Source of the DNA: a virus
Lineage: Duplodnaviria > Caudoviricetes
Direction: 5' to 3' (one strand)
DNA: 59,060 nt
Virus record (IMG/VR): IMGVR_UViG_3300045996_002405
Location: 1-59,060 of that record
Part shown: positions 1 through 59,060 of the stretch, piece by piece
Layout: each line of letters begins with the position of its first letter
Numbering within the stretch: the first letter of the stretch is position 1
Notes under the pieces: generated by a model
The model's input: only the letters and a program-made list of their open reading frames with translations
What the model was told of the DNA's origin: nothing
Databases searched by the model: none
Translations under genes and position numbers: made by a program

Positions 1-127
1 AACGCGTGGACGGCCGGGCTCAACGCCACCGTCGCGGCCGCCGCGGCGATCGTCAGCTGGGCGATCGGCCTACCTGGGCAGATCACCGGCGCGGTGCAGG
101 GCCTCGCCGGCCAGCTCTCGGCGTGGG
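1..127. repeat. Terminal overlap identical to 58934-59060 (circular assembly overlap)
   Basis: Exact 127-bp match between the window start and end; the reading frame continues across the join. Confidence 0.95.
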
Positions 128-723
128 GGCGCAACGCGTGGAACTCGGCGTACCAGGGCACCGTCGGCGCGGTCGGTGAGCTGATCAGCTACGTCAGCGG
201 CATCGGTGGCCGGATCGTCTCGGCGGTCGGGGACCTCGGCGGCCGGCTCGTCGCGGCGGGGCGCGCGATCATCTCCGGACTGCTGTCGGGGATCAGGCAG
301 GGCGCGCAGGAGGTCTTCGACTTCGTCAGCGGGATCGGCGACCGGATCGCGTCGCTGAAGGGACCGTTGCCCTACGACAAGGTTCTGTTGATCCCGAACG
401 GCAAGGCGCTGATGACCGGGCTCGACGTCGGTCTGCGTCGCGGCTGGCCGCAGGTCGAGGCGACCCTGCGCCGGATGACCGCCGACCTGCCGTCCACGGT
501 CCCGGTCCGCCTGGCGGGCAAGCGACCGGCGCCGCAGCTGCAGCGCGCCCCGATGACCCGTAACGGCGTCACGCTCACCCCGCAGCAGGTGCCGCGCTCG
601 ACGACCACGATCGACAACAGCCGGACGATCACCGCGACGATCCCGATCACGACGCGCGCCGAGAACCCGCTGATCGTCGCGCGTCGCGCGGCCGACGAGC
701 TGGCACTACTGGGACAGGGGTAG
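1..723 (+). CDS. Tape measure protein, C-terminal part (continues from 56543-59060)
   Basis: Ala/Gly/Trp periodic helical repeats and a TMP-like C-terminus (KGPLPYDKVLLIPNGKALMTGL); in frame with the ORF at the window end. Confidence 0.9.
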   Translation, partial: NAWTAGLNATVAAAAAIVSWAIGLPGQITGAVQGLAGQLSAWGRNAWNSAYQGTVGAVGELISYVSGIGGRIVSAVGDLGGRLVAAGRAIISGLLSGIRQGAQEVFDFVSGIGDRIASLKGPLPYDKVLLIPNGKALMTGLDVGLRRGWPQVEATLRRMTADLPSTVPVRLAGKRPAPQLQRAPMTRNGVTLTPQQVPRSTTTIDNSRTITATIPITTRAENPLIVARRAADELALLGQG

Positions 724-22494: not shown

Positions 22495-23661
22495 ATGAGC
22501 CATCTCGTGCAGGACTGGGCCGAGGAGGTATCCGTGGCCGACGTCTACGAGCGCGTGCTGCTCATGTCGCTCGCGCAGCGCGCGTCGCCGGACGGTACCG
22601 GCTGCTACCCCGCTGTTGCCACGCTCGCCCGAGCATCGATGTCGAGCACGCGCACGATCCAGCGTCGGCTCACGCAGCTCGCGGAACGAGGGATCATCCG
22701 GCTCGGGGACCAGGCGAAGGTCTCCTACCTCCCGGCGGGCAAGCGTCCGACGGTGTGGGACCTGATGGTCCCCTACGACTGGTACTCGGCCGCGCAGATG
22801 GAGAAGGTCCAGCTGTGGCGCGCGGAGAACAACCTGCCCCCGCTGCGACCCGAGGACCGCCCGCCGCTGCCCCCGGTCGAACCCGCGCGCAAGCGGCGTT
22901 CGGACTCGGGCAAGTCGCGCCCGAGGAAGCGCACTGCTGAAACCACCGCTGACCAGCAGGAAGGCGATGTGACGCGACTACTAGTCACCCCTGTTGACAG
23001 CCCGTCCGACCCTGTGGACAACCCCCAGGGTGGGGTGACTAGTAGTCCGGCAGGGGTGACTAGTAGTCCTGAACTGACGCGACTCGTAGTCACCCAAACC
23101 CGTAAAGAACTAACCCGTCCTGTGAATCCGTCCTTTTCTACTGCTCCGGTGGGCACGGTCCCCCCCACCGGTACGGAAGTTGACGCGCGAGCGGGGGAGG
23201 GGACGACCTCCGGACACGACGACGAGCGGCACGACCTGCTCGACGTCGAGTCCACCCGGCGCCTGCAGGCCGGGGCGCTGCTGCGGTCCCTGCCGATGCC
23301 GCCCGCAGCAGCCCCGCCGACGCTCGACGAGAAAGCCGCGCTCGTCGAGCTGGTGCTGCAGCTGTGGGCCGCCGGGGCTTCGACGGTGGAGATCCGCAAG
23401 GACCTGAGCCGCGACCTCTCCGGAGTCCGCTACGCCGGACGCATCTGGATCACACGGCTCGGTGTGCTGCTCGAACACGTGCGGGCCCGGGCCGCGGCGC
23501 GGGCTGCGACCCCGCCGCTGTGCGGGCAGTGCGAGGGCAGGCCGAACGAGGGGGTCGCATCCCGGACCGTGTGGCTCGACGACCAGCACGAGCGGTTCGC
23601 GCTGTGCCCGCGCTGCCACCCGGCGGGGTTGCAGCAGGTCGTCTCAATCGGCGCTCACTGA
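22495..23661 (+). CDS. HTH replication initiator (RepA / lambda-O-like)
   Basis: N-terminal ERVLLMSLAQRA..DG.GCYPAVATLA....STRTIQRRL..L...GII wHTH; internal repeats; C-terminal CGQC...CPRCHP. Confidence 0.8.
   Translation: MSHLVQDWAEEVSVADVYERVLLMSLAQRASPDGTGCYPAVATLARASMSSTRTIQRRLTQLAERGIIRLGDQAKVSYLPAGKRPTVWDLMVPYDWYSAAQMEKVQLWRAENNLPPLRPEDRPPLPPVEPARKRRSDSGKSRPRKRTAETTADQQEGDVTRLLVTPVDSPSDPVDNPQGGVTSSPAGVTSSPELTRLVVTQTRKELTRPVNPSFSTAPVGTVPPTGTEVDARAGEGTTSGHDDERHDLLDVESTRRLQAGALLRSLPMPPAAAPPTLDEKAALVELVLQLWAAGASTVEIRKDLSRDLSGVRYAGRIWITRLGVLLEHVRARAAARAATPPLCGQCEGRPNEGVASRTVWLDDQHERFALCPRCHPAGLQQVVSIGAH
22976..23142. repeat. Putative replication origin inside rep: iterons, DnaA box, AT-richer tract
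   Basis: GGGGTGACTAGTAGTCC at 23032-23048 and 23053-23069; inverted copies at 22976-22991 and 23081-23095; TGTGGACAA (reverse complement TTGTCCACA) at 23013-23021. Confidence 0.7.
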
Positions 23662-26321: not shown

Positions 26322-26387
26322 CCCGCACGACCCAGCAGACGGCAGCAGGTCCTCACCGTTTTGGTGAGGGCCTGCTGCCGTCTGGGA

Positions 26388-26567
26388 CTACTTCGCGACG
26401 ATCCGCCGACCGCCACGCGGTCGGAGCGTCACACCTGCCTCGCGCAGCAGTCGGTGCACGGTGCCGTAGGACCGGCCCACGTGCGCGGCGATGGACCGCA
26501 GCGACTCGTCGTTGGCGTAGCGGTGTCGAACCTCCGCCGACAGCTCGTCGCGCTGGACGGTGGACAT
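26388..26567 (-). CDS. Small actinobacterial HTH regulator (HTH_58-like)
   Basis: RYANDESLRSIAAHVGRSYGTVHRLLREAGVTLRPRGG. Confidence 0.8.
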   Translation of the reverse strand: MSTVQRDELSAEVRHRYANDESLRSIAAHVGRSYGTVHRLLREAGVTLRPRGGRRIVAK

Positions 26568-26660
26568 GCGACGACGTCTGGGCCCGCTCGATCCGGTGGT
26601 CTGTCCCACGTCTGTTCCTCCGATCGGTTGCCCCGATGGTGGCCCAACCGGCCGCACTGA

Positions 26661-26930
26661 TCAACCGGGCTCGTGGTCGGGTGGTCGCGCCGCGGCCGGT
26701 GGTGTCACCTGGTACCCGAGGGCGCGCAGCTTCCGCACGGCGCACGCGACGTGCTGGTCGTCGACGCAGCGGCAGTCGGGCGACGGCTCGTCGGGAAAGA
26801 CCACGATCTCTCGTCGTCCCCTCGGGGACTGCTCGGCTCGGACGGGGAGACGGCCGCGGTGGTACCAGCGGTTCGCGGTCGGGTAGGACACGCCACGTCG
26901 GCGTGCCCACTCGGCGAGCGGGATCGGCAT
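26661..26930 (-). CDS. MerR/excisionase-like HTH protein resembling the IS607 TnpA N-terminus
   Basis: LAEWARRRGVSYPTANRWYHRGRLPVRAEQSPRG; no serine-recombinase domain follows. Confidence 0.65.
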   Translation of the reverse strand: MPIPLAEWARRRGVSYPTANRWYHRGRLPVRAEQSPRGRREIVVFPDEPSPDCRCVDDQHVACAVRKLRALGYQVTPPAAARPPDHEPG

Positions 26931-26979
26931 CGGCCGATCTTCTCACGAGTGAGAAGATCATGCTAGCCTCGGCTCAGCC

Positions 26980-28461
26980 GTGTACGGCCATGAGAGGACG
27001 GACCAGGTGGACCAGCGCACCGATCAGCCGGACGACGATCTGCCACCGGCAGACGTCGTCGCCCAGCTCGGGTGGTCAGCGCGCCGGCAGCTCGGTCGGG
27101 AGATCACCGCTCGCCAGCGCGAGCGGACCAGGACGATCGCCGACGACGAGCGCCGGAAGCGCCGCGACAACGCCGAGACCGACAAGCGCAAACGCGCCGA
27201 CGACAAGCGCAAGCGCAGGCAGGACGCCCGCAACGCAGCCGAAGCGGGCACCGACGGGGGGTCGCTGATCGCGCGACACCGCGCCCTCGCGATCACCGTG
27301 CTCACGATCGCCCTGTCGCTGTCGACGGCGATCCCCTCCCAGATCAAGTGGCTCAACGCCGCCCCGAGGAACCTGGGCCTGGCCGCGTGGACCCTCGGCC
27401 TGCTCGTCGAGCTGCTGGGGTGGCTCGGGGCGTTCCTGTACCTCGACGCCGTCAAGCGCGGGAAGTCGGAGCAGGGACGCGTCTACCGACTGACGACGTG
27501 GTTCTTCGCAGCCGTCGCCGCGCTGATGAACTTCGCGCACGGATTCGAGACGTCGTGGATCGTCGGCGTCGGGCTCGCGATCGCCTCCCTGATGGGTGTC
27601 GGCGCGTTTGAGCTGTACATGCACAAGAAACGGAACCTGAAAATCGGTCTCAGTCCCGCTGAAATGCGGGTGATCTGGCTGCGCCAGGTGAGGTTCCGCA
27701 AGGTGGTTCGTGAGCAGAACCGGCTCCGCGCCGTGTACGGAGCAGGCCCGACCGACGAGGTGCTGTGGCGCATGGCGTGGCTGCGCAAGGAAGGCACGCC
27801 GACCGTTCCGGTGCCGCTCGCTTCGCCGGTGATCACGGCGTTCTTTGCCAGCGCGACGAGCGACGCGAACACCGCGAACACGAAGTCCGGACAATCGTCG
27901 GACGTCGCTCCGGTCGACCTGCACGCCGAGCCGAGTTCGTCGACGGCCGTCGACGGCGGTTCGCTGGCCGTGGCCGAGCGCGAACAGGGCGACCACGACG
28001 GCGAACAGGTCATCGAACTCGCGATCGACTGGAGCCAGGTGAACGACCTCGGATCCCTCGTCGAGCGCTACTGGCCCGAGGTCACCGGAGCCCCCGGCGA
28101 ACCTCCGGCGAACAGCGACCAGGCGCACGCGAACGGCGACCCGGAGCAGACCGACATCCTGCCCGTGATCGGCGCGAACGACGCGAACACTGACGCGAAC
28201 ACCGACGGCGAACAGACGCCCGACCCGTACGCCGCGATCCCGGCGGACCAGGACGAGACGGTCGCCGCGGCGACCCGACTCCGCCGCTACTTCGCCCGGG
28301 TGCACGAACTCGGCGTGCCCGCCGACCACATCGCGCCGCGGCGGGGCGAACTGGCTTGCGGAACCTCCCTGCGGTACGCGCAGATCGCGTACCGCACCTG
28401 GTACCACGAACTCACCGCGAACAGCCCTGCGAAAACCGGACACGAACAGGTCGAGTCGTGA
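26980..28461 (+). CDS. Spd-like (DUF2637-type) plasmid-spread membrane protein
   Basis: Charged coiled coil, about 4 TM helices (...AALMNFAHG...), low-complexity linker and C-terminal helical domain; first gene of the operon ending in traB. Confidence 0.6.
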   Translation: MYGHERTDQVDQRTDQPDDDLPPADVVAQLGWSARRQLGREITARQRERTRTIADDERRKRRDNAETDKRKRADDKRKRRQDARNAAEAGTDGGSLIARHRALAITVLTIALSLSTAIPSQIKWLNAAPRNLGLAAWTLGLLVELLGWLGAFLYLDAVKRGKSEQGRVYRLTTWFFAAVAALMNFAHGFETSWIVGVGLAIASLMGVGAFELYMHKKRNLKIGLSPAEMRVIWLRQVRFRKVVREQNRLRAVYGAGPTDEVLWRMAWLRKEGTPTVPVPLASPVITAFFASATSDANTANTKSGQSSDVAPVDLHAEPSSSTAVDGGSLAVAEREQGDHDGEQVIELAIDWSQVNDLGSLVERYWPEVTGAPGEPPANSDQAHANGDPEQTDILPVIGANDANTDANTDGEQTPDPYAAIPADQDETVAAATRLRRYFARVHELGVPADHIAPRRGELACGTSLRYAQIAYRTWYHELTANSPAKTGHEQVES

Positions 28462-28531
28462 CCCGCTGAATGCACAAGTGACCGAATAGCTCGACGATCT
28501 GGCGAACACCGTTCGCGCGGTGTTCGCCAGA
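27864..28531 (+). repeat. Co-oriented GCGAAC repeat array ending in a 14-bp inverted repeat
   Basis: About a dozen GCGAAC copies in the 3' part of the CDS; TCTGGCGAACACCG-TTCGCG-CGGTGTTCGCCAGA at 28498-28531. Confidence 0.65.
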
Positions 28532-28615
28532 TGTGGCCGAGGTCGAGGTTTGCGCCCGGAAGAACACGCCGGACGCATTCCGGGGCTCGGACCCCACCAC
28601 CAGGAAAGAAGGATC

Positions 28616-30160
28616 ATGAGCGACACCACAGAGGAGAAGACACCAACCACCGACGCCCCTGCCGAAACCCCCGCCGAGACAACCCCGCAAACCAGCACCG
28701 ACCCCGCTGTTGTGACGACCCCGGACACGAACGCGACCGAGGTCAAGAATTCCACTCCCGCACCCGAGATCCCCGAGACCGGGGTTTCGTCGCTCGCCGT
28801 GGCCGGATCCACCGTCGGCGCTCTCGGAGTGTTCGGCGCGACCGCGCTCGGCGCTGCGACCGGCCCGCTCGGACTCGCGATCGGCGCCGGTGTCGTGGTC
28901 GCCGGTGTCGGGGCGGGGATGCTGCGAGCGCGTCGAGCCGCCACCGACGGCCACCGCGCACGTGGTGAGGGGCGACGCGGCAGGACCAGGACGGGACGCG
29001 GGTCGGGCTCGCGACGTCGAGCACGGGTGACCGGGGTCGGCGGCACCGGCAAGCGCGCCTCAGCGCTCCGCAGGGCCGCATCGGCACGCAGGGGTGCAGC
29101 GGGGGCCGCGAAGCGGTCTGCGGGCCGTACGGGGGCCACGAAGCGTCCGCTCGGCGCGACGCCGAAACGGCACGTCGGCACCCGGACCCCGACGCGCGGC
29201 AAGTCGCTCGCGCAGACCCTCGGCCGCAGTCCGGCCGCGCGCAAGAGCACCGGACGCGCACCCGGACGCGGCGGAAAGTCGCTGCTCAGCGGCGGTAAGA
29301 GCGGTTCCGGTAGCCGTCGCAAGAACACCAGCGGCCCGAAGAACAACCGCAGCAAGAGCGGCAAGGGCAGCAGCAAGGGCACCGGCGGACGGATCCGGTC
29401 GCTGCTCGGCGGGTCCAACGGTCCTGGTCGCACGAAGCGGTCCAAGGGCAAGGACCACCGGTCGAAGGGCAAGGGCTCCGGCTCCGGCCGCAAGGACAAG
29501 CGGTCGAAGAGCAGGCGCACCCCGCGCCGCTGGTGGCGCTGGATCGCCGGGATCGGCAAGTACTCCGGCGGTCAGCTGCGCCGGGTCGGCTGGTGGCTGT
29601 GGGGACCGAAGAGCAAGCCGGCCCCGAAACCCCTCATCGCCGAGGACAGCGCGCCGGCCGAACCCGCGAAGAAGCCGAAGAAGCCGAAGGGCGCACCCCG
29701 CGTCGACCCCGACGGCGAGACGCCCCGCAAGCGCCCCACCAGCAGCAACCCGCCACGCGGCATCAGCACAGCAGGAGGATCGGACATGGCGAACATCAAA
29801 GACGACTTTTTCGCAGGATCGCGCGACGCCCTGCAGGCCGACTTCGCGCGACTGCGCAACGTCTTCCAGGACGTCGACCGGGGCGGGTGGAGCGACACGA
29901 AGGACGCGATGCGCAGCTTGGCGGCCCTGTTCGAGCAGCTCGGGCTGTCCGGCCGCGTGTTCGCCGACGACAACGACGAGCGCGGCGGCTACGTCGGCGG
30001 GTTCGCCGAGGTCGTGCGCGAGCTGTCGGGACACTCGCTCGGCATCGGGGACCGCTGCCACGAAGCGCTCGACGTCGTGCGCACCGGGCAGAAGGAACTC
30101 GTCGAGTACGCGGAGGACGGCCGCGGCGGCCGCTTCGACCAGAGCACGAACAACGACTGA
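28616..30160 (+). CDS. Transfer-region protein (TM segment, very basic R/K/G/S linker, helical C-terminal domain)
   Basis: RBS GAAGGA before ATG 28616; in-frame internal RBS GGAGGA plus ATG at 29786. Confidence 0.65.
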   Translation: MSDTTEEKTPTTDAPAETPAETTPQTSTDPAVVTTPDTNATEVKNSTPAPEIPETGVSSLAVAGSTVGALGVFGATALGAATGPLGLAIGAGVVVAGVGAGMLRARRAATDGHRARGEGRRGRTRTGRGSGSRRRARVTGVGGTGKRASALRRAASARRGAAGAAKRSAGRTGATKRPLGATPKRHVGTRTPTRGKSLAQTLGRSPAARKSTGRAPGRGGKSLLSGGKSGSGSRRKNTSGPKNNRSKSGKGSSKGTGGRIRSLLGGSNGPGRTKRSKGKDHRSKGKGSGSGRKDKRSKSRRTPRRWWRWIAGIGKYSGGQLRRVGWWLWGPKSKPAPKPLIAEDSAPAEPAKKPKKPKGAPRVDPDGETPRKRPTSSNPPRGISTAGGSDMANIKDDFFAGSRDALQADFARLRNVFQDVDRGGWSDTKDAMRSLAALFEQLGLSGRVFADDNDERGGYVGGFAEVVRELSGHSLGIGDRCHEALDVVRTGQKELVEYAEDGRGGRFDQSTNND

Positions 30161-30208
30161 CCCCTGCACGACCTGCTGACTGACCCCACCACCAGGGAGA
30201 ACACGCCC

Positions 30209-32560
30209 ATGAGCACCACCCAGCAGGGGAGGTCGTCCCCCCGGTCGCTGCTCGCGACCATGTCGACCACGAAGTTCCGGCACGGCAGCTGGTTCACACC
30301 GGTGCTGGTGTCGATCTGGCTCTACGTCGCGGCCTGTCTGCTCGTGCAGATCGAGCCGATCACCGCGCAGCCCTGGCTCTACGTCGGCGTGCCGGCGGGG
30401 CTCGCGGTGCTGATCGGGCCGTTCGCGACGTTCGTGCACGTCCAGGCCGAGCCCGACACCACCTGGCGGACCGCGACCCGAGCCGGTCAGTACGCACTGC
30501 TCGTCGCCGCAGCGGCCGGCGGGTGGCTGCTGTACTCGATCCTCACCACCCCCCCCGCCGCCTTCCCCGCGTCCGGCCTGTGGGCGCTGGTGTGCGCGAC
30601 GATCGTCGTCGGCCCCTGGTACGGCCTGCTGCGGCGCGCGAAGCGCACGCTCGTGCAGCAGGCGCACGAACAGCGCGTCGAGGCCGTGCGCGTCGAGCAG
30701 CAGCGCCGCGCGATGGAGTACCAGTCCGATTGGACGGCGATCCTCGCGGCCGCCGGGTATCCGGGGATGACGGTGATCGACAAGCTGGGCACGCGCTCGG
30801 GCTACCGGTTGACCATGACGCTGAACCCCGAGCGGAACCAGACCTATGACCAGCTCAAACAGGCCGAGAAGTCGATTGCGACCGCGGCGTCGCACCGTCT
30901 GCGCCACCAGGGCGTGAGGATCGGCACCAGGGCGATCCGGGTTGAGGAGTGCCCCGACGCCGACACGGTCATGATCCACGTCCGCACGACCGACGTGCTC
31001 ACGGTGACCATGTCGGTCCCCGACGTCGGCAAGCCGCTCGACGTCGCCGACGGACTGGAAATCGGCCTGTACGAGGACGGGCAACCGATCATCATGCCCG
31101 TGGTCGGCGTGCACACCGAGGTCGTCGGCATGTCCGGATCCGGAAAGTCCGGACTCGCGCGGACCATCTTCACGCGGCTGTCGCAGTGCTGGAACGCCGT
31201 GATCTGGTGCGGCGCCAGCTCGAAGCTCTTCCCACTGGTCGGCCCGTGGTGCGACGCCTGGTGGTCCAACCCGCGCACCGCCGACAACCCTGACGGCATC
31301 GGCGGATCGATCTTCGACTGGATCGCAGGTCAGAGCCCCGACGAGGTCCGGCAGATGCTCGCGTCCGCGTACGAGCTGATCGACCTGCGCTCGAAGATCA
31401 AGCGCGTCGGCGACAACCTGGAGCCGACAGCGGAGAACCCGCTGGTCTTCGTCGCGCTCGAAGAGTCGATGACGATCCTCGTCGACCGGACGAAGATCCT
31501 CTGTCACGACGGCGTGATGCGGACCGCGTCCGAGCTGGTGCGGCTGATCACGCAGCTGGGCCGGTCCGAACTGGTCCACCTGTGCCGCTTCGACCAGTAC
31601 GGCCTGATGGACAGCGCCGGTGCCGAGGGCAACAAGATCCGACGCAACACGCGCAACCGCATCTGCTTGAAGACGATGTCGAGCAGCGACAGCACCGCCG
31701 TGCTCGGCAGCAGCGCTCCGGACACCACGAAGCTGACCAACAATTGCATGTATGTGTCGCTCGGTGAGGAAGTCGTACGACCGGTTCTCGGCAAGGCGTA
31801 CTTCTCCGAAGCGGATCCGGAGAAGGCCCGGAAGTTGGGAATCCTGTCCGTAGCGGAAATTGCAGCAGCGCATGACGAATTCCGTTTCGAGCTGTCCCCG
31901 AAGTGGACGCGTCGTCTCGGGCGTCGCTACCAGGATCGCTGGACCAAGCCGAGGATCGCGGAACTGCTGCAGTACAAGCGCGGCGAGATCGACGGCGACG
32001 AGGAAACCGAGGGCGCACGCGTCGCGGTGATGACAGCTCCCGAGCCGGACACCCATCGTGAGGAGAACCCCACCGTGAACGAATCGCAGCCTCGACCTGA
32101 CAGTGAGAACGCGTTCGGGGCACCGCCGAACCTGGCCGACGCCATGCGCCGGGGAATGCAGAAGAAGCAGAAGCCCCCGACGAAGCCGGACAGCGACAAG
32201 CCGTCGACCGGCGATGCCGGATCGGTCGACTGGGACACCGAACTGCGGAAGCTGCTCGGCGCGGACCCGGTGGAACAGGCCGCGCCGAGCCTGATCAACC
32301 GGCTGACCGGACTGATGCTCGCCGGCGAATTCGGCACGATCGACGATTCGACGTTCATCGAGCAGGGCCGCGCGGCGGAGTTGTTGGGCTATCCCACCGT
32401 CGCGGCCCTGGTGCGGGAGATGGCCGCGGCTCCGATCAACCTGTCGGTCCAGCGCGCCGCCGAGACCAAGATCCCGAGCAGGCCCCGCGGCTGGTGGGCA
32501 ACCGACGTGTTCAACGCCGCGGCCCGGATCGACCAGGAGGGCGTCGACGGGCAGGAGTAA
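30209..32560 (+). CDS. traB: TraB/FtsK-SpoIIIE-type DNA translocase
   Basis: Four N-terminal TM helices; Walker A GMSGSGKS; Walker B FVALEE; LGRSE.V Arg-finger-like motif; C-terminal wHTH-like tail. Confidence 0.75.
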   Translation: MSTTQQGRSSPRSLLATMSTTKFRHGSWFTPVLVSIWLYVAACLLVQIEPITAQPWLYVGVPAGLAVLIGPFATFVHVQAEPDTTWRTATRAGQYALLVAAAAGGWLLYSILTTPPAAFPASGLWALVCATIVVGPWYGLLRRAKRTLVQQAHEQRVEAVRVEQQRRAMEYQSDWTAILAAAGYPGMTVIDKLGTRSGYRLTMTLNPERNQTYDQLKQAEKSIATAASHRLRHQGVRIGTRAIRVEECPDADTVMIHVRTTDVLTVTMSVPDVGKPLDVADGLEIGLYEDGQPIIMPVVGVHTEVVGMSGSGKSGLARTIFTRLSQCWNAVIWCGASSKLFPLVGPWCDAWWSNPRTADNPDGIGGSIFDWIAGQSPDEVRQMLASAYELIDLRSKIKRVGDNLEPTAENPLVFVALEESMTILVDRTKILCHDGVMRTASELVRLITQLGRSELVHLCRFDQYGLMDSAGAEGNKIRRNTRNRICLKTMSSSDSTAVLGSSAPDTTKLTNNCMYVSLGEEVVRPVLGKAYFSEADPEKARKLGILSVAEIAAAHDEFRFELSPKWTRRLGRRYQDRWTKPRIAELLQYKRGEIDGDEETEGARVAVMTAPEPDTHREENPTVNESQPRPDSENAFGAPPNLADAMRRGMQKKQKPPTKPDSDKPSTGDAGSVDWDTELRKLLGADPVEQAAPSLINRLTGLMLAGEFGTIDDSTFIEQGRAAELLGYPTVAALVREMAAAPINLSVQRAAETKIPSRPRGWWATDVFNAAARIDQEGVDGQE

Positions 32561-32581
32561 CTCGGTACCGTCACTCTCCGG

Positions 32582-32613
32582 CGACGCCCCTCGGTCACGA
32601 TCGGGGGGCGTCG
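32582..32613 (+). terminator. Hairpin after traB
   Basis: CGACGCCCCTCGGTC-AC-GATCGGGGGGCGTCG. Confidence 0.65.
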
Positions 32614-32629
32614 TGCTGTCCGGGGCGCG

Positions 32630-32870
32630 ACGGTCCACGTGGACCGGTCCACGGTCCGCGTGGCGGTCCTCACCCGCTGTGGACCGGTCCGCGGACCGCG
32701 CCGAGGACCATGGACCGCCACCCGTGGACCTGGGGTCTGACCAGCACGGACGTCCTGGTCCACGGTAGCGGTCCACGCGCCGGACAGGCCCGCCGCAGGC
32801 CCTGCGGACCCCGGATCGGCGGCAGAGGAGGGGTGTGTGCGGCGGTGTGCTCCGGGCGTGGACCGGACCA
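32630..32870. repeat. Non-coding GTGGACCG/CGGTCCAC repeat array (clt-like)
   Basis: 16 GGWCC cores counted in about 240 bp, in both orientations, between traB and the ParB-like gene. Confidence 0.7.
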
Positions 32871-32968: not shown

Positions 32969-33574
32969 ATGACGCCGCCGCGCCCCCTGCAGATGACGCA
33001 CAAGATCGTCCCGATCGACGAGGTCACCGCGTTCCCCGGCAACGCCCGGCTCGGCGACCAAGCCGGCATCGGCGAGTCGCTCGATGCGCACGGGCAGTTC
33101 GACCCGCTGATCGTGCAGGCGAGCACCGGTCACATCATCGCCGGGAACAACACCTGGGCCGCGATGAAACAACAGGGCGCGACCGAGGTCGCGATCTCGC
33201 TCGTCGACGTCGACGACGACACCGCGCGGAAGATGAACCTCGTACACAACCGGCTCAACGACAAAGCGCGGTACGACGACCGGCTGCTGCTGGAAATGCT
33301 CGCCGACCTCGACGACCTCGACGGCACCGGCTACGACGCCGACGACATCGACGCCCTCGAAGAATCGTTGCGCACCGCCGACCTAGACGAGCTGGCCGAC
33401 GAGATCGGCGACCCCGGACGCGACGACGGCTGGCCCTCGATCAACGTCCGGGTGCCGCACGTGGTCATGGCCGCCTGGAAATCACACGTCGACACCCACA
33501 GCGGCGACGACGCACAGGCAATGGCCGGACTGCTGGGAATCGATTGGGACCAGGTAGATTCGGCCGATCGATGA
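32969..33574 (+). CDS. ParB/Srx N-terminal domain protein
   Basis: VPIDEV...PGNAR......IGESL..HGQFDPLIV.....IIAGN..W.A motif; heads the deazaguanine cluster. Confidence 0.85.
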   Translation: MTPPRPLQMTHKIVPIDEVTAFPGNARLGDQAGIGESLDAHGQFDPLIVQASTGHIIAGNNTWAAMKQQGATEVAISLVDVDDDTARKMNLVHNRLNDKARYDDRLLLEMLADLDDLDGTGYDADDIDALEESLRTADLDELADEIGDPGRDDGWPSINVRVPHVVMAAWKSHVDTHSGDDAQAMAGLLGIDWDQVDSADR

Positions 33575-34512
33575 CGACCCGCATCGACACACCGGTCGAC
33601 ACCCTCGTCTCGTACCACTACTTCCGGCGCGACGAGGTGATGCGAGCCCTCACCGGCACGAAGAAACTCCGGCTGATCGCGGACTCGGGCGCGTTCTCCG
33701 CGTTCAGCCAGGGCGCGGAAATCGCCCTGGACGAGTACGCCCAGTGGTGCCGCACCTGGTCGGACCACCTGTGCTGGACCGCGAGCTTGGACGTGTTCGG
33801 CAACCCGCGCGCCAGCTATGCGAACTGGCGGACCCTGCTCGACGAGCACGGCCTGCGCACCGTCCCGACGATCCACATCGGCACCGACCCGACTTGGCTC
33901 GACACCTACGCCGACGCCGGCGTGGACTTCGTCGGGCTCGGAGGCATGGTCGGCCGCGGAACCGGGGTGATCCGCTGGGTCGTGCACGTGCTGCGCTACG
34001 CACGCGACCGGCACCCCGCGATGCGGTTCCACGGGTGGGGCGTCACCGCGCCGACCATGCTCGACCGCGTCCCGCTCTACAGCGCCGACAGCAGCGGCCT
34101 GGTCAACCAGGCGTGCCGCTTCGGGTCGCTGCGGCTCTACGACCCGCGCACCCGCACGCACCGGACGTTCCGCCTCGACGGCCGCACCCCGCACCAGCAC
34201 CGGCGCCTGCTGTCCGAGGTCTACGGCGTCTCGGCCGCGCAGGTCGCCACCAGCCACGCGAGCAACCGCGCCCAGATCATCCAGCTGTGCGCCGCGGCGA
34301 CCCAGCTCTACGCGGCCGACCTGCAGCGGCGGCACCGCGTCACCGCGCCGTCGTGGGGCATCAACCACGCCGCGCCCTCGATGCCGGGCGACGCACTCAC
34401 CGGTCCCCGCGTCCACATGGTGTCCGCGCAGCCGAAGGACTTCCCACGGCTGCTCGGGCTCGACCCGCACCAGCTCCTCCCGACCCCTACTCGAAGGACG
34501 GCCCAACGGTGA
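33571..34512 (+). CDS. dpdA: DpdA/TGT-like DNA deazaguanine transglycosylase
   Basis: TGT-barrel motifs LIADSGAFS, SLDVFG, VPTIH, VGLGGMV, FHGWG, SADSS; coupled to queC. Confidence 0.75.
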   Translation: MTTRIDTPVDTLVSYHYFRRDEVMRALTGTKKLRLIADSGAFSAFSQGAEIALDEYAQWCRTWSDHLCWTASLDVFGNPRASYANWRTLLDEHGLRTVPTIHIGTDPTWLDTYADAGVDFVGLGGMVGRGTGVIRWVVHVLRYARDRHPAMRFHGWGVTAPTMLDRVPLYSADSSGLVNQACRFGSLRLYDPRTRTHRTFRLDGRTPHQHRRLLSEVYGVSAAQVATSHASNRAQIIQLCAAATQLYAADLQRRHRVTAPSWGINHAAPSMPGDALTGPRVHMVSAQPKDFPRLLGLDPHQLLPTPTRRTAQR

Positions 34513-35243
34513 CCCACCAACCCCCGCCGCTCGACGGCGACCGCTCGTACCTCGTCCTGCTCTCCGGCGGACTCGACTCGACCGTGCTCACGACCGACCT
34601 GCTCGTCTCCGGCGCGACCGTGCAGGCCGTGTCGATCCACTACGGCCAGCGGCACGAGCGCGAACTGATCGCCGCGGCGGCCGTCGCGGCGCACCTGCAG
34701 GTGCCCTACTCGCCGATCGAGCTGCTGGCGCTCGGCTCCCACCTGACCTCGTCGCTCACCGGCGCCGCACCGGTGCCCCACGGCCACTACGCCGACGCGA
34801 ACATGTCCAGCACGGTCGTCCCCAACCGCAACGCGATCATGCTCATGGTCGCCGCCGGGATCGCCGCGGCGCGCGGCCTCGACGCCGTGGTCACCGCCGT
34901 GCACGCCGGTGACCACCCGGTGTACCCCGACTGCCGGCCCGAGTTCGTCGCGGCCGCGAACACCGCGGCGCTGCTGGGCACCGGCGGGCAGGTGGAAATC
35001 CACGCGCCGTACGCCCGGATCACCAAGGAGCAGATCGTGCAGCGCGGCGCGCGCGTCGTCGCACCGTTCGCGCTGACGTGGTCCTGCTACCAGGGTGGTG
35101 ACACCCACTGCGGACGGTGCGGCACGTGCGTTGAGCGCGCCGAGGCGTTCGCGGCCGCCGGCGTGCAGGACCCCACGACCTACCTTGACCCGGACTTCTG
35201 GCGCACCGCCACCGAGCGCCAGGCCGCCGAGGTGACCTCATGA
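34509..35243 (+). CDS. queC: 7-cyano-7-deazaguanine synthase
   Basis: LLSGGLDST, YGQRH..E, VPNRN, YPDCRPEF, TWSCY...HCGRCGTCVER. Confidence 0.97.
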   Translation: MTHQPPPLDGDRSYLVLLSGGLDSTVLTTDLLVSGATVQAVSIHYGQRHERELIAAAAVAAHLQVPYSPIELLALGSHLTSSLTGAAPVPHGHYADANMSSTVVPNRNAIMLMVAAGIAAARGLDAVVTAVHAGDHPVYPDCRPEFVAAANTAALLGTGGQVEIHAPYARITKEQIVQRGARVVAPFALTWSCYQGGDTHCGRCGTCVERAEAFAAAGVQDPTTYLDPDFWRTATERQAAEVTS

Positions 35244-35731
35244 CGCGCGGCTTCCCGCACGGCGCGGCCCCGGGCCCGATCCCCGGCGGGTGCGCTGTCA
35301 CCGTGCGGCACAACTTCGAGGCCGCGCACCGGCTGCCCGCGCTCGGCGGCAAGTGCGTCTCGCTGCACGGCCACTCATGGTGGCTCGACGCGACCTTCGG
35401 CACGCCCGCCGACGACCCGTCGAACCCGCCGATCGACTTCGGGCAGGTCAAGAGCGCCGTGCGGCACTGGGTCGACAAGCACCTGGACCACGCGACGCTG
35501 ATTGGGGAATCCGACCCGCTGCTGCCCGCGCTCACCGCCGAGGGCTGCAAGGTCTACCGCTTCGGCCACGACTACCACGCCCGCGACCTGGCGTGGCCCA
35601 CGGTCGAAGCCGTCGCGGTGCTGGCATACCGCACTCTGCGCGTGATCGCCGCGACGCTGCACCCCGACCTGACCCTGCTGCGCGTGCGGGTGCAGGAAAC
35701 CCACACCAACGCCGTCGAGGTGCCGTCGTGA
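35240..35731 (+). CDS. queD: 6-carboxy-5,6,7,8-tetrahydropterin synthase
   Basis: FEAAHRL...KCVSLHGHS, IDFG.VK, LDH, PTVE, ET motifs. Confidence 0.95.
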   Translation: MTRGFPHGAAPGPIPGGCAVTVRHNFEAAHRLPALGGKCVSLHGHSWWLDATFGTPADDPSNPPIDFGQVKSAVRHWVDKHLDHATLIGESDPLLPALTAEGCKVYRFGHDYHARDLAWPTVEAVAVLAYRTLRVIAATLHPDLTLLRVRVQETHTNAVEVPS

Positions 35732-36531
35732 TGCGGCCGGTCGTCACCGGGCACGGCCTGGCTTGGCTGCGCGCCACCGACGCCGACGCCCGCGCGCTGC
35801 CCCCGCTGTCCGACCGGGCGACCCTGCCGCTCGCGGAGGTGTTCGGCCCGACCTGGCAGGGCGAGGGACCGCACACCGGCGTTCCGGCCCGGTTCGTCCG
35901 GCTCGGGCACTGCAACCTCTCGTGCGGCGCGGACGGCGGCACGATGCGGTGCGACACCCCGCAGACGTGGGACCACGACCGGTTCAACGTCGGCGCCGAG
36001 TGTCCGGACACCACGACGCGGGAGATCGTCGAGCGCGCTGCGGCGATCCCGGCAGCGATCACCGTTCTGACCGGCGGTGAGCCGCTGCTGCACCACCGCA
36101 GACCCGCTTTCGCCGCGCTGCTGGCGCACCTGGCCACGCTCGGTCCCGTGCACGTCGAGACCAACGGCACGATCCCACCCGCCCCCGAGCACGACTACGT
36201 GATCGCGCACTACTCGGTCAGCCCGAAGCTGACCAACACCGGCGACCCTCACCGGCGCCGCATCCGCCGCGGCGCACTCGTCGATTTCAACGACCGGCGC
36301 TCGGCGATCTTCAAGTTCGTCTGTGCCAACACGGCCGACGTCGACGAGGTGCACGACCTCGTCACCGACTGCGGACTGGACCCCGACCGAGTGTGGATCA
36401 TGCCCGAGGGCATCACCGCCGACGACGTGCTGGCCACCCACCGACTCATCGCCGACGACGTGCTGCGTCTCGGCTACCGGACCACGACACGGCTGCACAC
36501 GCTGCTGTGGGGAAGCGAGCGCGGACGATGA
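35728..36531 (+). CDS. queE: 7-carboxy-7-deazaguanine synthase (radical SAM)
   Basis: EVFGPTWQGEG, FVRLGHCNLSC...CDT, LTGGEPLL, VETNGT, VSPKL. Confidence 0.95.
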   Translation: MMRPVVTGHGLAWLRATDADARALPPLSDRATLPLAEVFGPTWQGEGPHTGVPARFVRLGHCNLSCGADGGTMRCDTPQTWDHDRFNVGAECPDTTTREIVERAAAIPAAITVLTGGEPLLHHRRPAFAALLAHLATLGPVHVETNGTIPPAPEHDYVIAHYSVSPKLTNTGDPHRRRIRRGALVDFNDRRSAIFKFVCANTADVDEVHDLVTDCGLDPDRVWIMPEGITADDVLATHRLIADDVLRLGYRTTTRLHTLLWGSERGR

Positions 36532-42711: not shown

Positions 42712-42761
42712 CCGATCTGGCTGTGGGCCGGGCGCTACCCCGACAGGAGTGCGCCCGCATG
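42712..42761 (+). promoter_or_regulatory. Late-gene leader element, copy 1
   Basis: CCGATCTGGCTGTGGGCCGGG followed by a stem covering the RBS. Confidence 0.7.
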
Positions 42762-45745: not shown

Positions 45746-45810
45746 CCGATCTGGCTGTGGGCCGGGTGCACGTCCGTACATCACGACGTGCACTAGGAGT
45801 GCCCCGCATG
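45746..45810 (+). promoter_or_regulatory. Late-gene leader element, copy 2
   Basis: Identical 21-mer CCGATCTGGCTGTGGGCCGGG upstream of the major capsid RBS. Confidence 0.7.
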
Positions 45811-56491: not shown

Positions 56492-56545
56492 CCGATCTGG
56501 CTCAGGGCCGGGCACACGATCCCGTAGGGGAGGTGTGCCCGCTTG
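56492..56545 (+). promoter_or_regulatory. Late-gene leader element, copy 3
   Basis: CCGATCTGGCTCAGGGCCGGG plus CGGGCACAC/GTGTGCCCG stem around the RBS of the TMP. Confidence 0.7.
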
Positions 56546-59060
56546 AACATCGCCGAAGCGATCGTCGAGATCATCGCCGACGGCAAGCGCTTCACGGCGT
56601 CGTTCCGCAACCAGGTCGGCAAGGCCGGTGCGGAAGCGGGCCGGCAGTTCGACGCGGGCTTCGAGAAGGCCACCGCGCAGACCGGCGCGAAGGTCTCCCG
56701 CGACGTCAACGGCCGACTGCGCGACGAGCGCGGACGTTTCCTCTCCGGCGGTGCGCAGGCCGGCACGACGTGGGGTGACGCGTTCCGCAACGCGCTCGCG
56801 TTCAAGCTGGCCAGCGGGGCGATCAGCAAGATTTTCGCGCCGCTCAACGCGCTCGGCAGAGGACTCGGGCTCGCCGTGGCCGGAGCTGGCGCCGCGGCGG
56901 CCGCGGCGCAGCTGCTGACGTTCGTCGGCGTGGCCGGTCAGACCGCCGGCGTGCTGCTCGCGATCCCGGCGGCCGCGCTGGTGGGAGCGGCCGCGCTGTC
57001 GACGTTGCGCGTCGCGACCTCCGGCATGAGCGACGCGTTCGCCGCCGCGGCGTCCGGCGACCCGAAGAAGCTGGCCGAAGCGCTCAAACAGCTCTCACCG
57101 GCCGCGCGGTCGGTGGTGGGCGAGTTCGCCGAGCTGGTGCCGCAGCTCAACGCTGTGCGCACGGCCGTCCAGGACGCGTTCTTCGACCAGCTGCAGGGCC
57201 AGCTGACCGCCGTCGCGGCGAACCTCGCGGGGCCGGTTCAGAGCGGCATGGTCGGCACCGCCGCAGCCGCCGGAGCCGTCGCGCTCGGGATCGCGCGCAT
57301 CGCGCAGCAGGCAGAGACCGCGCAGCTCGTCAGCGGCGTGTTCGACACCGCCGCCGGATCGATCGCGAACCTCGAGCCGGGGCTGCTCGCGATCGTCACC
57401 GGGTTCCGCGACCTCGGCGGGGTCGCGCTGCCCCTGGTGGGGCAGCTGTCGCAGGGGATCGGCGGGCTTGCGGTCCAGTTCGGCACGTGGCTGTCCTCGA
57501 TCGCCGGCAGCGGCCAGGCGCTCACCTGGATCCAGACCGCCGTCGGCACGCTGCGTCAACTCGGCGACCTGCTCACGCAGGTCGGCGGCATCTTCGCGAC
57601 CATCTTCGGCGCCGCGCAGACCACCGGCGGCGGGCTGCTGGGCACGCTGACCGAGCTGTTGCGCGGCGTGAACGCGTTCCTCTCCTCCGGCGAGGGGCAG
57701 TCGGCGCTGCAGGCGGTTTTCCTCGCGCTGCAGGAGGTCGGCGGGGCGCTGGGGCCGGTGCTCGGGTCGCTGCTGAGCGCGCTCGGTCAGCTGGCCGGCC
57801 CGGCGGCCGCGCTGGCTGTGGCGCTCGGACCCGGCATCTCCGCGGCGCTGCGGGCACTGGGGCCGGCTATCGCAGCGCTGGGTCCTGGGCTCGAAGTCGT
57901 CGCGAAGGGGCTCGCCGACGCGCTGGCCAACCCCGACGTCGCCGCGGGGCTGCTGTCGCTGGGGCAGGGCCTCTCGGCGACGCTCGCGGCGCTGGGCCCG
58001 CTGATGCCCGTGCTCGGCCAGCTCGTCGCGGTGATCGGCAACGCTCTCGGGCGGTCGCTGCAGGTCGTCGCGCCGATCCTGCAGAAGGTCGCGGAGGCGC
58101 TGGCGTGGCTGCTCCCGCCGATCATCTCCCTGATCGACAAGGCGCAAGCGCTGGTCACGGCGTTCGTCGGCTGGGCCTACCTCGACGTGCTACCGGCGGT
58201 GCTGGGCCGCATCGGTGATGCCGCGGCCGCGGTCGGGCGATGGTTCGCCGGGCTGTGGGACACGCTGACCGGGTTCAGCTGGTCGGACGTGACCTCGGCG
58301 ATCGGCGACGCCGCTGCTGGCATCGGCGGTTTCTTCTCCGGGCTCGGCTCGACCGTGCTCGGCGCGTTGCGCGGTGTCGCGTCGGGTGTCGCGGACTGGG
58401 CCTCCGGGCTCGCGTCGTCGGCAGGTTCCGGCGTGTCCGACTTCGTGGGGTCGGTCGTCGACTGGTTCGCGGCGCTACCAGCCCGCATCGGTGCCGCGCT
58501 GGCCGCGCTGCCCGGTCAGCTGTGGCAGCTGCTCGTCAACGCGCTGACGTTCGCCGCGACGGCGGTCGGCTACGGCATCGGTGCCGTGCTGGCCGCGATC
58601 GTGCTGCTCCCGCAGCTGATCGCGAACGTCCTCGTCGGGCTCGGTCAGCTGCTCTGGAACGTGCTCACCGCGGCGTGGACGTACGCGACGACCGCCGTGG
58701 TGACCGGGCTCGCTGCGATCGTCACCTGGTCGATCGGCCTCCCGGCTCGGATCATCGCTGGTCTGCAGACCCTCGGTGAGCAGCTGTCGGCGTGGGCGTC
58801 GAACGCGTGGACGGCCGGGCTCAACGCCACCGTCGCGGCCGCCGCGGCGATCGTCAGCTGGGCGATCGGCCTACCTGGGCAGATCACCGGCGCGGTGCAG
58901 GGCCTCGCCGGCCAGCTCTCGGCGTGGGCGTCGAACGCGTGGACGGCCGGGCTCAACGCCACCGTCGCGGCCGCCGCGGCGATCGTCAGCTGGGCGATCG
59001 GCCTACCTGGGCAGATCACCGGCGCGGTGCAGGGCCTCGCCGGCCAGCTCTCGGCGTGGG
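56543..59060 (+). CDS. Tape measure protein, N-terminal part (about 1037 aa in total with 1-723)
   Basis: Not in the ORF track because it runs off the end. RBS GGAGG, TTG start, MNIAEAIVEIIADG...GRLRDERGRF; Ala/Gly/Leu-rich helices. Confidence 0.9.
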   Translation, partial: MNIAEAIVEIIADGKRFTASFRNQVGKAGAEAGRQFDAGFEKATAQTGAKVSRDVNGRLRDERGRFLSGGAQAGTTWGDAFRNALAFKLASGAISKIFAPLNALGRGLGLAVAGAGAAAAAAQLLTFVGVAGQTAGVLLAIPAAALVGAAALSTLRVATSGMSDAFAAAASGDPKKLAEALKQLSPAARSVVGEFAELVPQLNAVRTAVQDAFFDQLQGQLTAVAANLAGPVQSGMVGTAAAAGAVALGIARIAQQAETAQLVSGVFDTAAGSIANLEPGLLAIVTGFRDLGGVALPLVGQLSQGIGGLAVQFGTWLSSIAGSGQALTWIQTAVGTLRQLGDLLTQVGGIFATIFGAAQTTGGGLLGTLTELLRGVNAFLSSGEGQSALQAVFLALQEVGGALGPVLGSLLSALGQLAGPAAALAVALGPGISAALRALGPAIAALGPGLEVVAKGLADALANPDVAAGLLSLGQGLSATLAALGPLMPVLGQLVAVIGNALGRSLQVVAPILQKVAEALAWLLPPIISLIDKAQALVTAFVGWAYLDVLPAVLGRIGDAAAAVGRWFAGLWDTLTGFSWSDVTSAIGDAAAGIGGFFSGLGSTVLGALRGVASGVADWASGLASSAGSGVSDFVGSVVDWFAALPARIGAALAALPGQLWQLLVNALTFAATAVGYGIGAVLAAIVLLPQLIANVLVGLGQLLWNVLTAAWTYATTAVVTGLAAIVTWSIGLPARIIAGLQTLGEQLSAWASNAWTAGLNATVAAAAAIVSWAIGLPGQITGAVQGLAGQLSAWASNAWTAGLNATVAAAAAIVSWAIGLPGQITGAVQGLAGQLSAW
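58802..59060 (+). repeat. 132-bp (44-aa) tandem repeat in the tape measure gene
   Basis: 58802-58928 is identical to 58934-59060; a diverged copy lies just upstream. Confidence 0.9.

Follow-up and report, generated by a model that had tools for sequence, protein, structure and literature searches.

Background

A tailed plasmid-phage with a TraB-like transfer locus is a kind of element already in print and hence not new, because the Streptomyces plasmid-phage pZL12/phiZL12, with its conjugal transfer (tra) locus, was reportedly described by Zhong et al. in 2010. Here we analyse another candidate of this kind, the virus record IMGVR_UViG_3300045996_002405, whose 59,060 bases (G+C 72%) were studied in their entirety and are termed the window. 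Positions 26.3–32.9 kb of the window are interpreted, with moderate confidence, as a self-contained TraB/Spd-type module for the transfer of double-stranded DNA (dsDNA) set in a complete temperate siphophage genome.

The 2010 paper on pZL12 is cited in PMC3583192, PMC4487206, PMC5431353 and PMC7157519, and pSLE1 is syntenic with pZL12 according to PMC4487206. PhiNon1 of Nonomuraea gerenzanensis is presented in PMC5431353 as a plasmid-phage element that replicates itself and occurs in two forms, a circle and an insertion at a tRNA gene; it illustrates that carrying an integrase is compatible with a plasmid-like state. The literature found on conjugative phage-plasmids of actinomycetes comprises pZL12, pSLE1, PhiNon1 and a remark on SpdB2 homologues in phiC31 and VWB; a literature search of main texts, with supplements outside its scope, found no survey of TraB-like genes in actinophages, nor any account of how common such modules are across phage backbones. 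The clt loci of tra systems are described as short repeats, direct or inverted, that adjoin the 3' end of tra or overlap it, for instance the four 7-mers of pWTY27 and the nine 9-mers of pJV1, and the TraB of pSVH1 is said to read repeated 8-bp motifs via a C-terminal winged helix (PMC3583192).

Organisation of the candidate transfer module

The module and its borders contain the following features (TM, transmembrane; HTH, helix-turn-helix; aa, amino acids).

26336–26384, no strand, hairpin to the left of the module (22-nt arms, 95% complementary, 5-nt loop)
26388–26567, minus strand, HTH_58 DNA-binding protein, 59 aa (Pfam HTH_58 2.1e-20; PHROG HTH DNA binding 3e-7)
26661–26930, minus strand, Cox-like excisionase/repressor-type HTH protein, 89 aa (PHROG 575 at 4.2e-7)
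26936–26959, no strand, perfect palindrome GATCTTCTCAC-ga-GTGAGAAGATC in the divergent promoter region (11-nt arms, 100%)
26980–28461, plus strand, multi-TM protein P0002, 493 aa, SpdB2/DUF2637-like by architecture and weak scores
28616–30160, plus strand, basic TM protein, 514 aa, no family match
30209–32560, plus strand, TraB-like translocase (putative) P0001, 783 aa, P-loop ATPase
32582–32613, no strand, GC-rich hairpin, 22 nt past the ATPase stop codon (15-nt arms, 87%)
32631–32865, cluster of the 8-9-mer CGGTCCRCG (core GGTCCAC), 13 copies on both strands

An earlier note on this DNA had read an operon for a multi-TM protein, a basic TM protein and a 783-aa, N-terminally anchored ATPase with the motif GMSGSGKS, and this reading holds, as does that of two HTH genes, both of which lie on the minus strand and diverge from the three-gene operon. 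The two arrays of short repeats that the note had placed on either side fared unequally: the downstream array was recovered, while upstream there is no such array, only the hairpin and the palindrome. The left hairpin sits between upstream plus-strand genes and the minus-strand HTH_58 gene and is probably a bidirectional terminator forming the left border of the module, and the hairpin past the ATPase gene is the probable end of the operon. The HTH_58 protein is a candidate regulator of the module, with the palindrome as a candidate operator. The Cox-like product gave no Pfam match, and a sigma-70 promoter scan of the module returned 0 sites. A coding bias in third-position G+C (GC3) is evident in the ATPase and multi-TM genes, and the middle gene was called on such bias for its last 124 codons only; its start (ATG at 28616) was chosen by us within the open reading frame (ORF) 28520..30160.

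Anatomy, fold and family of the ATPase

The Walker A motif of P0001 (GMSGSGKS) occupies residues 307–314 and belongs to its one motor domain, as against the three tandem FtsK-like ATPase domains of EccC. Hydrophobic segments lie at residues 27–52, 57–78, 95–114 and 116–141 of the N-terminus. In the AlphaFold (AF2) model built from 64 sequences, with a mean predicted local distance difference test score (pLDDT) of 86, these correspond to four predicted TM helices at 26–145 (pLDDT ~90), followed by a stalk helix to residue 181, an alpha/beta domain (188–260), a P-loop motor (283–590, including Walker A 307–314, E419, R452 and Q463), a disordered linker (600–690) and a small helix/strand C-terminal domain (695–776). 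Residues G312, K313 and E419 are invariant in the 128- and 64-row alignments of the P0001 family. The best structure matches of the model in PDB were FtsK motor domains (E 8e-14 to 7e-12, ~430 columns), followed by the conjugation coupling protein TcpA (1.6e-11), EccC (1.6e-10) and then HerA; as modelled, P0001 has the FtsK-motor fold. No PDB sequence matched it at E<=1. Modelled alone, the C-terminal 101 residues (pLDDT 83) follow the order H-E-H-H-E-H and look like a winged helix, with a predicted recognition helix at about residues 731–739.

Only seven relatives with 36–53% identity were found by a word-indexed search with P0001, and a profile made from them recovered, out of 1.84 billion representatives, 1248 proteins at E<=1e-3, 180 of them at E<=1e-30. 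Of the 150 that were listed, almost every one measures 600–900 aa, and the named ones are 'hypothetical' or 'FtsK domain-containing' proteins of Halosaccharopolyspora and Saccharothrix. Pattern scans for relatives in viral, genome and metagenome contig sets gave no match, and only a scan with P0010 led to a locus.

Among NCBIfam models P0001 scored best with plasmid_TraB (NF041214) and next with EccCa (7.6e-7), and among PHROGs it matched 'FtsK/SpoIIIE-like' at 3e-5. Across 64 members of its family, plasmid_TraB was matched by 35 (best 5e-24), EccCa by 33 and FtsK by 2, and in Pfam FtsK_SpoIIIE was matched by 20 and FtsK_gamma by 2. NF041214 is itself a narrow model: in a sample of 151 Actinomycetes genomes, just one gave a match to it at E 1e-20 or better. 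A genuine TraB, L010 (998 bits on NF041214), is likewise without a Pfam FtsK_SpoIIIE match at 1e-5; it and its paralogue L011 show a YDDG/YEDG motif shortly before Walker A, where the P0001 family has G-YEDG. The identity of P0001 to the ATPases of phage-plasmids is 24–28% (E 1e-10 to 5e-32 in a small set).

A role of the ATPase in a defence system was considered and set aside, PADLOC having given only a 31-residue P-loop match to mad8.

Phylogeny of the motor region

A quick maximum-likelihood tree of the motor region was built from 75 rows, namely 46 family members, the window, four phage-plasmid ATPases, nine plasmid Tra/TraB proteins (pIJ101 type, NF041214 type, pSQ10, pFP1 and two small plasmids), four FtsK, eight EccC-type domains and three others. 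The P0001 family forms one group with the ATPases of pGBA129-24a and pAmyja1 (SH-aLRT, the Shimodaira–Hasegawa-like approximate likelihood ratio test, 92), which is joined next by a pZL12-type Streptomyces ATPase together with a paralogue from Halosaccharopolyspora lacisalsi (84), and then, at an unresolved node, by NF041214-type TraB, by pZL12.71c with pSQ10 and by the Tra of pFP1. FtsK and EccC join each other (93), with the FtsK sequences in a separate group of 100% support. When the P0001 family was forced together with FtsK, EccC and two unnamed proteins, away from all 12 plasmid-type rows, the log-likelihood fell by 26.9 units in the approximately unbiased (AU) test (p-AU 0.0024), the group so tested having been named after the tree was inspected.

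On these grounds it is very improbable indeed that the ATPase is an EccC-like secretion ATPase of a type VII-like system that exports proteins and not DNA. EccCa is, to be sure, its second-best NCBIfam match, about half of the 64 scanned members match that model too, and EccC stands among the fold matches; against this stand the single P-loop domain, the grouping of EccC domains with FtsK apart from the P0001 family, and the window as a whole, in which no other type VII secretion family was matched.

The identity of P0001 as a putative Tra/TraB-like dsDNA translocase, rather than an FtsK or an EccC, is supported because the fold, the family scans, the gene context of its homologues and the tree with its AU test all point that way. 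Several results weigh against it. The match to NF041214 covers residues 234–350 only, at E 7e-8 and 31.4 bits against a cut-off of 800, so that P0001 is no equivalog of that TraB; neither FtsK_SpoIIIE nor FtsK_gamma of Pfam matched it even at E 10; and its identity is 24% to pZL12.71c (E 1e-10 in an 18-sequence set) and 23% to the Tra of pIJ101 (E 0.003). The best matches of its C-terminal domain, the winged helices of MarR, SmtB and Rex, lie in the chance range (Foldseek E 0.04–0.3, VIA Z 5–7). In the tree, the backbone is weak (65–84), long branches are present, the plasmid Tra proteins do not form one group, and the pIJ101-type Tra falls on the FtsK/EccC side, at a split supported by 65 only; the choice of the AU-test group after inspection belongs here as well. 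What can fairly be said is that the tree does not set the ATPase apart from plasmid Tra proteins, which themselves make up no single clean clade. The label of a Streptomyces-type TraB given in the earlier note is overstated, the bit score being far below the cut-off of the TraB equivalog model and the nearest cultured relatives being Pseudonocardiaceae and not Streptomyces; the phylogeny against TraB, FtsK and Ecc ATPases that the note had asked for is the one given above.

Occurrence of homologous ATPases

A profile of the 64 family members found 46 of 401 sampled Actinomycetes genomes at E<=1e-20, a lower bound given a stricter first pass. Gene context was read in 17 stretches of 20 kb from 16 genomes around the best-scoring matches, which mostly cover most of the profile; G224, G164 and G356 (shorter frames or short contigs) and the unpublished G015 were left out. 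The Pfam scan of context covered 150 of the 161 called genes of >=180 aa, the 11 omitted being those of a second copy in G367.

Phage_integrase and Prim-Pol genes lie beside the ATPase gene in four of the 16 genomes (L070, L073, L074 and L075; DUF3631 too in L073 and L074), and these are loci of actinomycete integrative and conjugative element (AICE) type because they hold the Int, Rep and Tra by which Ghinet et al. define AICEs (PMC3218068). L082 has an integrase just under the Pfam cut-off as well as an IstB/DnaA-like ATPase. A GntR regulator, mostly with UTRA (TraR/KorA type), is found near the ATPase gene in 7 of the 16 genomes, and ParA, TrwC, NUDIX, HTH_36, SLT transglycosylase or DUF2637 genes in others.

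Phage contexts were seen in two of the 16 genomes. One is a Halosaccharopolyspora lacisalsi contig with RusA and exonuclease genes and, downstream, a TerL fragment 46% identical to the window TerL. The other, G384:C28, is a 56,308-bp contig with a 95-bp terminal overlap and is probably a circular phage or phage-plasmid of a layout related to the window: its genes for an FtsK-like ATPase, a ParB-like protein, QueD/QueE/FolE and TerL are ordered as they are in the window. G384:C28 also has a DUF2637 gene and YdjM, and its ATPase is FtsK_SpoIIIE-positive.

Among 72,556 plasmids, a tblastn search with P0001 matched 22 records, and the three of these that were opened, circular plasmids of cultured strains, all carry phage genes: Actinoalloteichus pGBA129-24a (59,408 bp; tape measure, holin and a Gp19/Gp15/Gp42 family protein), Amycolatopsis japonica pAmyja1 (92,539 bp; tape measure and a lysozyme of glycoside hydrolase family 25, GH25) and a 90,105-bp Streptomyces plasmid of the pZL12 type (terminase and major capsid protein). 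A search with the pZL12 TerL gave 91 plasmid records, 33 of the 40 shown being Streptomyces or Kitasatospora plasmids of 85–94 kb with 55–90% identity, and seven of these are also among the 22 records that match P0001. Only two of 50,697 phage records matched P0001 at E<=1e-5; one of them is Saccharomonospora phage PIS 136, an isolated phage with an 853-aa 'FtsK Spo IIIE protein'.

The ATPase module occurs in at least four unrelated phage backbones (the window with G384:C28; the pZL12 type; pGBA129-24a with pAmyja1; and PIS 136), which, if true, would mean repeated capture and selection. This recurrence bears on the thought that the module is a mere passenger, derived from an AICE or plasmid, and either inactive or engaged in, for example, excluding related elements, with no part in the movement of the phage genome. 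Such a history is in keeping with the mosaic nature of phage genomes, with the hairpins that bound the module on both sides and with the existence of TerL relatives of the window phage that are without the module. We nevertheless regard it as quite improbable, given that all three ORFs are intact, that the ATPase and multi-TM genes keep their coding GC3 bias and the ATPase its catalytic residues G312, K313 and E419, that the association of the ATPase with phage genes recurs in several unrelated lineages and that no defence family was matched beyond the 31-residue P-loop. Passenger DNA, defence and protein secretion are all less likely roles than DNA transfer.

Two side observations concern the homologous loci. 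G367:C1 (44,570 bp; L077/L078) holds two copies of the ATPase gene at 9660–11783 and 28718–30832, ~19 kb apart, with shared flanks (GntR/UTRA, 608-aa and 533-aa ORFs, Abi_2 and a ParA-like gene), as either a tandem duplication or the assembly of a multimer would leave. The ATPase homologue of L070 (G382:C1:6326570-6328687) has an in-frame TAG and is possibly a decaying copy; its 3' flank keeps nine CCCGGAC.

Membrane proteins encoded upstream of the ATPase

P0002 has a basic N-terminus, with R, K, D and E abundant over the first 95 residues, hydrophobic stretches at 102–120, 132–158 and 191–213 that make 3–4 TM segments in a TM region of ~102–213, and a long C-terminal part. This layout resembles that described for SpdB2, in which four TM helices lie between a coiled N-terminal part and a C-terminal domain (PMC4447253). 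In language-model features P0002 scored 0.93 to actinobacterial clusters that partly carry DUF2637 (17 of 30 matches) and 0.85 to SpdB_N/HTH_SpdB_C clusters, values to be taken as leads only; its single database relative is 39% identical. The Spd/DUF2637-like label applied in the earlier note has to be softened to a weak assignment. Pfam DUF2637 matched residues 135–223 at E=0.036 with 14.4 bits and missed the cut-off of 22.8 bits, and phmmer against 374 proteins of related loci, Spd/DUF2637 proteins included, found none at E<=10; both results count against a TraB/Spd-type module.

The basic protein has an acidic N-terminus, a TM region at 60–105, a 270-residue stretch rich in Arg, Lys, Gly and Ser (residues 120–390; 28% K+R, 19% Gly) and an acidic helical C-terminal domain. 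It matched no family in the Pfam, NCBIfam and PHROGs scans. Conservation is limited to the C-terminal domain, a homologue of which is encoded immediately before the ATPase gene in the H. lacisalsi element (tblastn L005 5e-14; phmmer 3.5e-11).

Repeat cluster 3' of the ATPase gene as a candidate clt

Starting 71 bp past the ATPase stop codon, a stretch of 235 bp (32631–32865) holds 13 of the 179 matches of the window to CGGTCCRCG (<=1 mismatch), in inverted pairs on both strands. Eight of the 24 matches to GTGGACC lie within 32632–32864, 233 bp that make up 0.4% of the window, and this word is not over-represented genome-wide (24 found against 18.3 +/- 4.5 expected). The commonest 7-mer on both strands was also counted in the 350 bp from 60 bp before the ATPase stop and compared with all 350-bp windows of the same locus: the count here is 7 copies, and 1.0% of 588 genome windows reach as high. 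By its position and local excess the feature is a clt-like cluster, and a candidate clt as far as sequence can tell.

Clusters 3' of the ATPase gene (>=5 copies, <=10% of windows as high) are present in 7 of 18 related elements, with differing words:

L070, CCCGGAC, 9 copies
L074, CGACAAG, 9 copies
L075, 8 copies
L073, 6 copies
pAmyja1, CGTCCCC, 6 copies
H. lacisalsi element, CTACACA, 6 copies
L084, 5 copies

L071 has 7 copies on a noisy background (16%). The recurrence of different words at the same position fits a recognition site that co-evolves with its translocase, though not a universal one. Ten of the 18 related elements are without a 3' cluster, including pZL12, its Streptomyces relative, pGBA129-24a, G384:C28 and pIJ101, which speaks against a clt at this place; the clt of pIJ101 has been reported near korB.

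The cluster also sits upstream of a ParB-like gene (32969–33574) and could serve that gene instead, a further point against the candidate. The repeats would then be bound as an array by the ParB-like protein, or would control the operon of ParB-like, 7-deazaguanine and terminase genes as its operator or promoter region, which would leave room for the ATPase to be a translocase that recognises some other site. The position of the cluster in a 408-bp gap before a ParB-N-domain gene, its inverted pairs on both strands, which suit dimeric regulators, and the lack of a cluster 3' of tra in pZL12, pIJ101 and nine other elements all agree with this explanation. We consider it rather unlikely, in view of the unrelated clusters directly 3' of the ATPase gene in the seven elements listed, four of which (L070, L073–L075) have no ParB family in the Pfam scan of genes >=180 aa, and of G384:C28, where a ParB-like gene is present yet no cluster follows the ATPase gene.

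The phage genome around the module

Both ends of the window share an exact 127-bp overlap. The assembly is very likely a circle of 58,933 bp, because removal of this overlap joins the ORF 56543..58933 (797 codons) in frame with 1..723 into a tape-measure gene of ~1037 codons, with the caveat that the overlap sits inside a tandem repeat of 132-bp period in that gene. The circular genome proposed in the earlier note is thereby borne out to this degree. The tandem repeat itself (58711–59060 and 1–127) counts 2.7 copies of 132 bp with 90% matches, and since the contig is cut within it, the true copy number may differ from the assembly. A circular assembly is compatible alike with a plasmid, a replicating phage or a circularly permuted phage genome.

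Genes were called by third-position G+C bias, and 72 products were searched against Pfam and PHROGs, on which the following assignments rest except where noted.

37251–37844, TerS
37945–39447, TerL
39918–41846, portal
42723–45245, MuF-like head protein
45799–47802, major capsid
48764–49684, major tail
50549–51628, GH25 endolysin
51632–52474, adaptor
53533–54033, tail completion
54151–54903, tail chaperone
56543..58933 joined to 1..723, tape measure
726–3247, minor tail proteins
7248–8408, minus strand, tyrosine recombinase (matches to XerD/XerC models far below cut-offs)
21808–22113, HTH_36 replication-initiator-like ORF
22495–23661, HTH_36 replication-initiator-like ORF (coding bias clear only from 23149 on)
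32969–33574, ParB-N-like gene, 201 aa (the only ParB-type match, below its cut-offs)
33571–37154, DpdA/QueC/QueD/QueE/FolE block, directly upstream of terS

The gene content is the full virion and packaging set of a siphophage of a high-GC actinomycete, as the term 'complete tailed phage' in the earlier note implied. The lysis gene set named there is upheld for the GH25 endolysin, while a holin is inferred from small ORFs only. The note's Xer-like recombinase was found, as were Rep-like genes, and no polymerase, primase, helicase or ParA family appeared among the Pfam/PHROG matches of the window products, in line with its remark on the first three. Scans of the window for tRNA and Rfam gave no match, and no near-identical DNA was found in the phage and plasmid collections. 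By homology, the block after the ParB-N-like gene is one for 7-deazaguanine DNA modification, the DpdA-like product matching the PHROG queuine tRNA-ribosyltransferase at 1.5e-80.

Two observations lie aside from the module. Following the minor tail genes, a 651-aa protein (3549–5504) has a weak match to glycerophosphodiester phosphodiesterase (E 0.0019, below cut-off), and pZL12.40c, near the tail and lysis genes of pZL12, is annotated as such an enzyme; the two may be a shared tail-associated wall-polymer enzyme. At 22976–23100, in or beside the Rep-like ORF 22495–23661, four direct and inverted copies of a 16-17-nt word (GGGGTGACTAGTAGTC) are a possible iteron-type origin.

Proposed mechanism and its implications

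We think it somewhat probable that a repressor-controlled, TraB/Spd-like apparatus loads at the GGTCCAC repeats and carries the circular phage genome, as dsDNA, along hyphae and from one hypha to another. The HTH_58 and Cox-like proteins would probably repress the divergent operon via the palindrome at 26936–26959. On its expression, the operon would yield the SpdB2-like multi-TM protein, the basic membrane protein and the membrane-anchored FtsK-fold ATPase. If it acts as TraB does, this ATPase would assemble into a hexameric pore and, through its C-terminal domain, read the GGTCCAC repeats that lie immediately 3' of the ATPase gene; it would then drive the circular phage genome, in the form of dsDNA, through hyphal walls or septa to reach adjoining mycelium. 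The transferred DNA would then move along the compartments of the recipient, with the two membrane proteins assisting as Spd proteins do, and the phage would gain a virion-free route of spread.

Further points tell against this mechanism beyond those on the ATPase, P0002 and the repeats. No GntR-type TraR/KorA was found in the window, and the mycelial habit of the host is itself presumed. In L091 (CP108834.1, a linear Micromonospora plasmid record of 58,733 bp), whose TerL is 42% identical to the window TerL, no large FtsK-like gene lies within 14 kb upstream of TerL, where RecT, YqaJ and an exonuclease are found instead; L091 is a phage-like element outside the chromosome that does without the module, and the module is accordingly dispensable for such phages.

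The motor could also serve maintenance alone, pumping or clearing phage-plasmid copies through the cross-walls and sporulation septa of its own host in the manner of SpoIIIE/FtsK, with the Xer-like recombinase resolving dimers, GGTCCAC acting as orienting or loading sites, and vertical inheritance as the only outcome. The FtsK fold of the motor and the XerD/XerC-like scores of the recombinase would suit such a device, and since no ParA was found, another means of segregation would be useful; Thoma et al. moreover suggest that actinophage Spd homologues may help to spread phage DNA within the mycelium (PMC4447253). We hold a role in maintenance alone to be unlikely: the P0001 family groups with plasmid Tra and not with FtsK, those of its members found on chromosomes belong to AICEs, a class of transferred elements, and the recombinase gene is 19 kb away and unlinked to the module. 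The two functions overlap in any case, as TraB systems use one protein for both intramycelial spread and intermycelial transfer.

With transfer between mycelia kept as the favoured function, the resting state of the element would be either a plasmid or an integrated prophage. The element has Rep-like genes and iteron-like repeats, no ParA was found, and a tyrosine recombinase and a Cox-like gene are present.

If the module works as proposed, the virus would spread through and between mycelia without particles, escaping receptor-based resistance and extracellular decay and blurring the line between phage, plasmid and AICE. We put forward only tentatively, and as a rather doubtful generalisation, that TraB-type modules are a recurrent, exchangeable accessory of the tailed phages of mycelial actinomycetes, and that this phage moves by virions, by integration or plasmid carriage, and by clt-guided, virion-free hyphal transfer. 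A compact and complete example with a candidate clt makes the question of whether tailed phages conjugate directly testable.

Comparison with known systems

The chromosomal FtsK/SpoIIIE proteins share with P0001 the motor fold with its alpha and beta domains (the best structural match), an N-terminal membrane anchor and a long linker, and the small C-terminal DNA-reading domain of FtsK parallels the small C-terminal domain of P0001. P0001 differs from them in its lack of a Pfam FtsK_SpoIIIE/FtsK_gamma match, in its separate tree group and in the location of its gene in a mobile element.

The TraB-Spd systems of Streptomyces plasmids (pSVH1, pIJ101) and the Tra of AICEs (pSAM2/pMEA300 types) have an FtsK-like membrane translocase of ~650–780 aa, Spd membrane proteins encoded beside it, a short-repeat clt next to tra and a divergent repressor (PMC4447253, PMC3583192 and PMC3218068); the putative counterparts in the window are P0001, the two membrane proteins, the candidate clt and the divergent HTH genes. 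Unlike the window, these plasmids and AICEs are without virion genes, and their regulator is of GntR type, whereas the window has HTH_58 and Cox-like proteins. The spd genes follow tra in the plasmid loci L004, L036 and L037, whereas the membrane protein genes of the window precede the ATPase gene; pFP1, with a DUF2637 gene upstream of tra, is an exception among plasmids.

PhiNon1, at 59,257 bp and 70% GC, is near the window in size and composition, a comparison made by description only (PMC5431353). No Nonomuraea record was among the plasmid and phage matches of the window.

The closest counterpart is pZL12 (GQ919031, 90,435 bp), which like the window is circular and encodes a complete tailed virion. 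Its terS/terL genes are immediately preceded by 73c (398 aa, 3 TM), 72c (766 aa, TM) and 71c (725 aa, FtsK-like), in a gene order that matches the window; we take pZL12.71c–73c to be its traA–traC, an assignment of our own. The window TerL is 32–35% identical to the pZL12-type TerL group. The two elements differ in size (59 kb against 90 kb), in their ATPases, which at 24% identity stand on different tree branches, in the ParA and ParB of pZL12, a pair that the window does not have, in the 7-deazaguanine cluster of the window and in the repeat cluster after the ATPase gene, which pZL12 is without. pZL12 is the one precedent with experimental support; in our searches the association of phages with such ATPases is far wider and takes in pZL12-type plasmids, two Pseudonocardiaceae phage-plasmids, two phage-like contigs of cultured genomes and phage PIS 136. 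What the window adds to pZL12 is a compact, uncultured member whose ATPase stands on another branch, whose regulators differ, and which has both a cluster for DNA modification and a candidate clt of unusual clarity.

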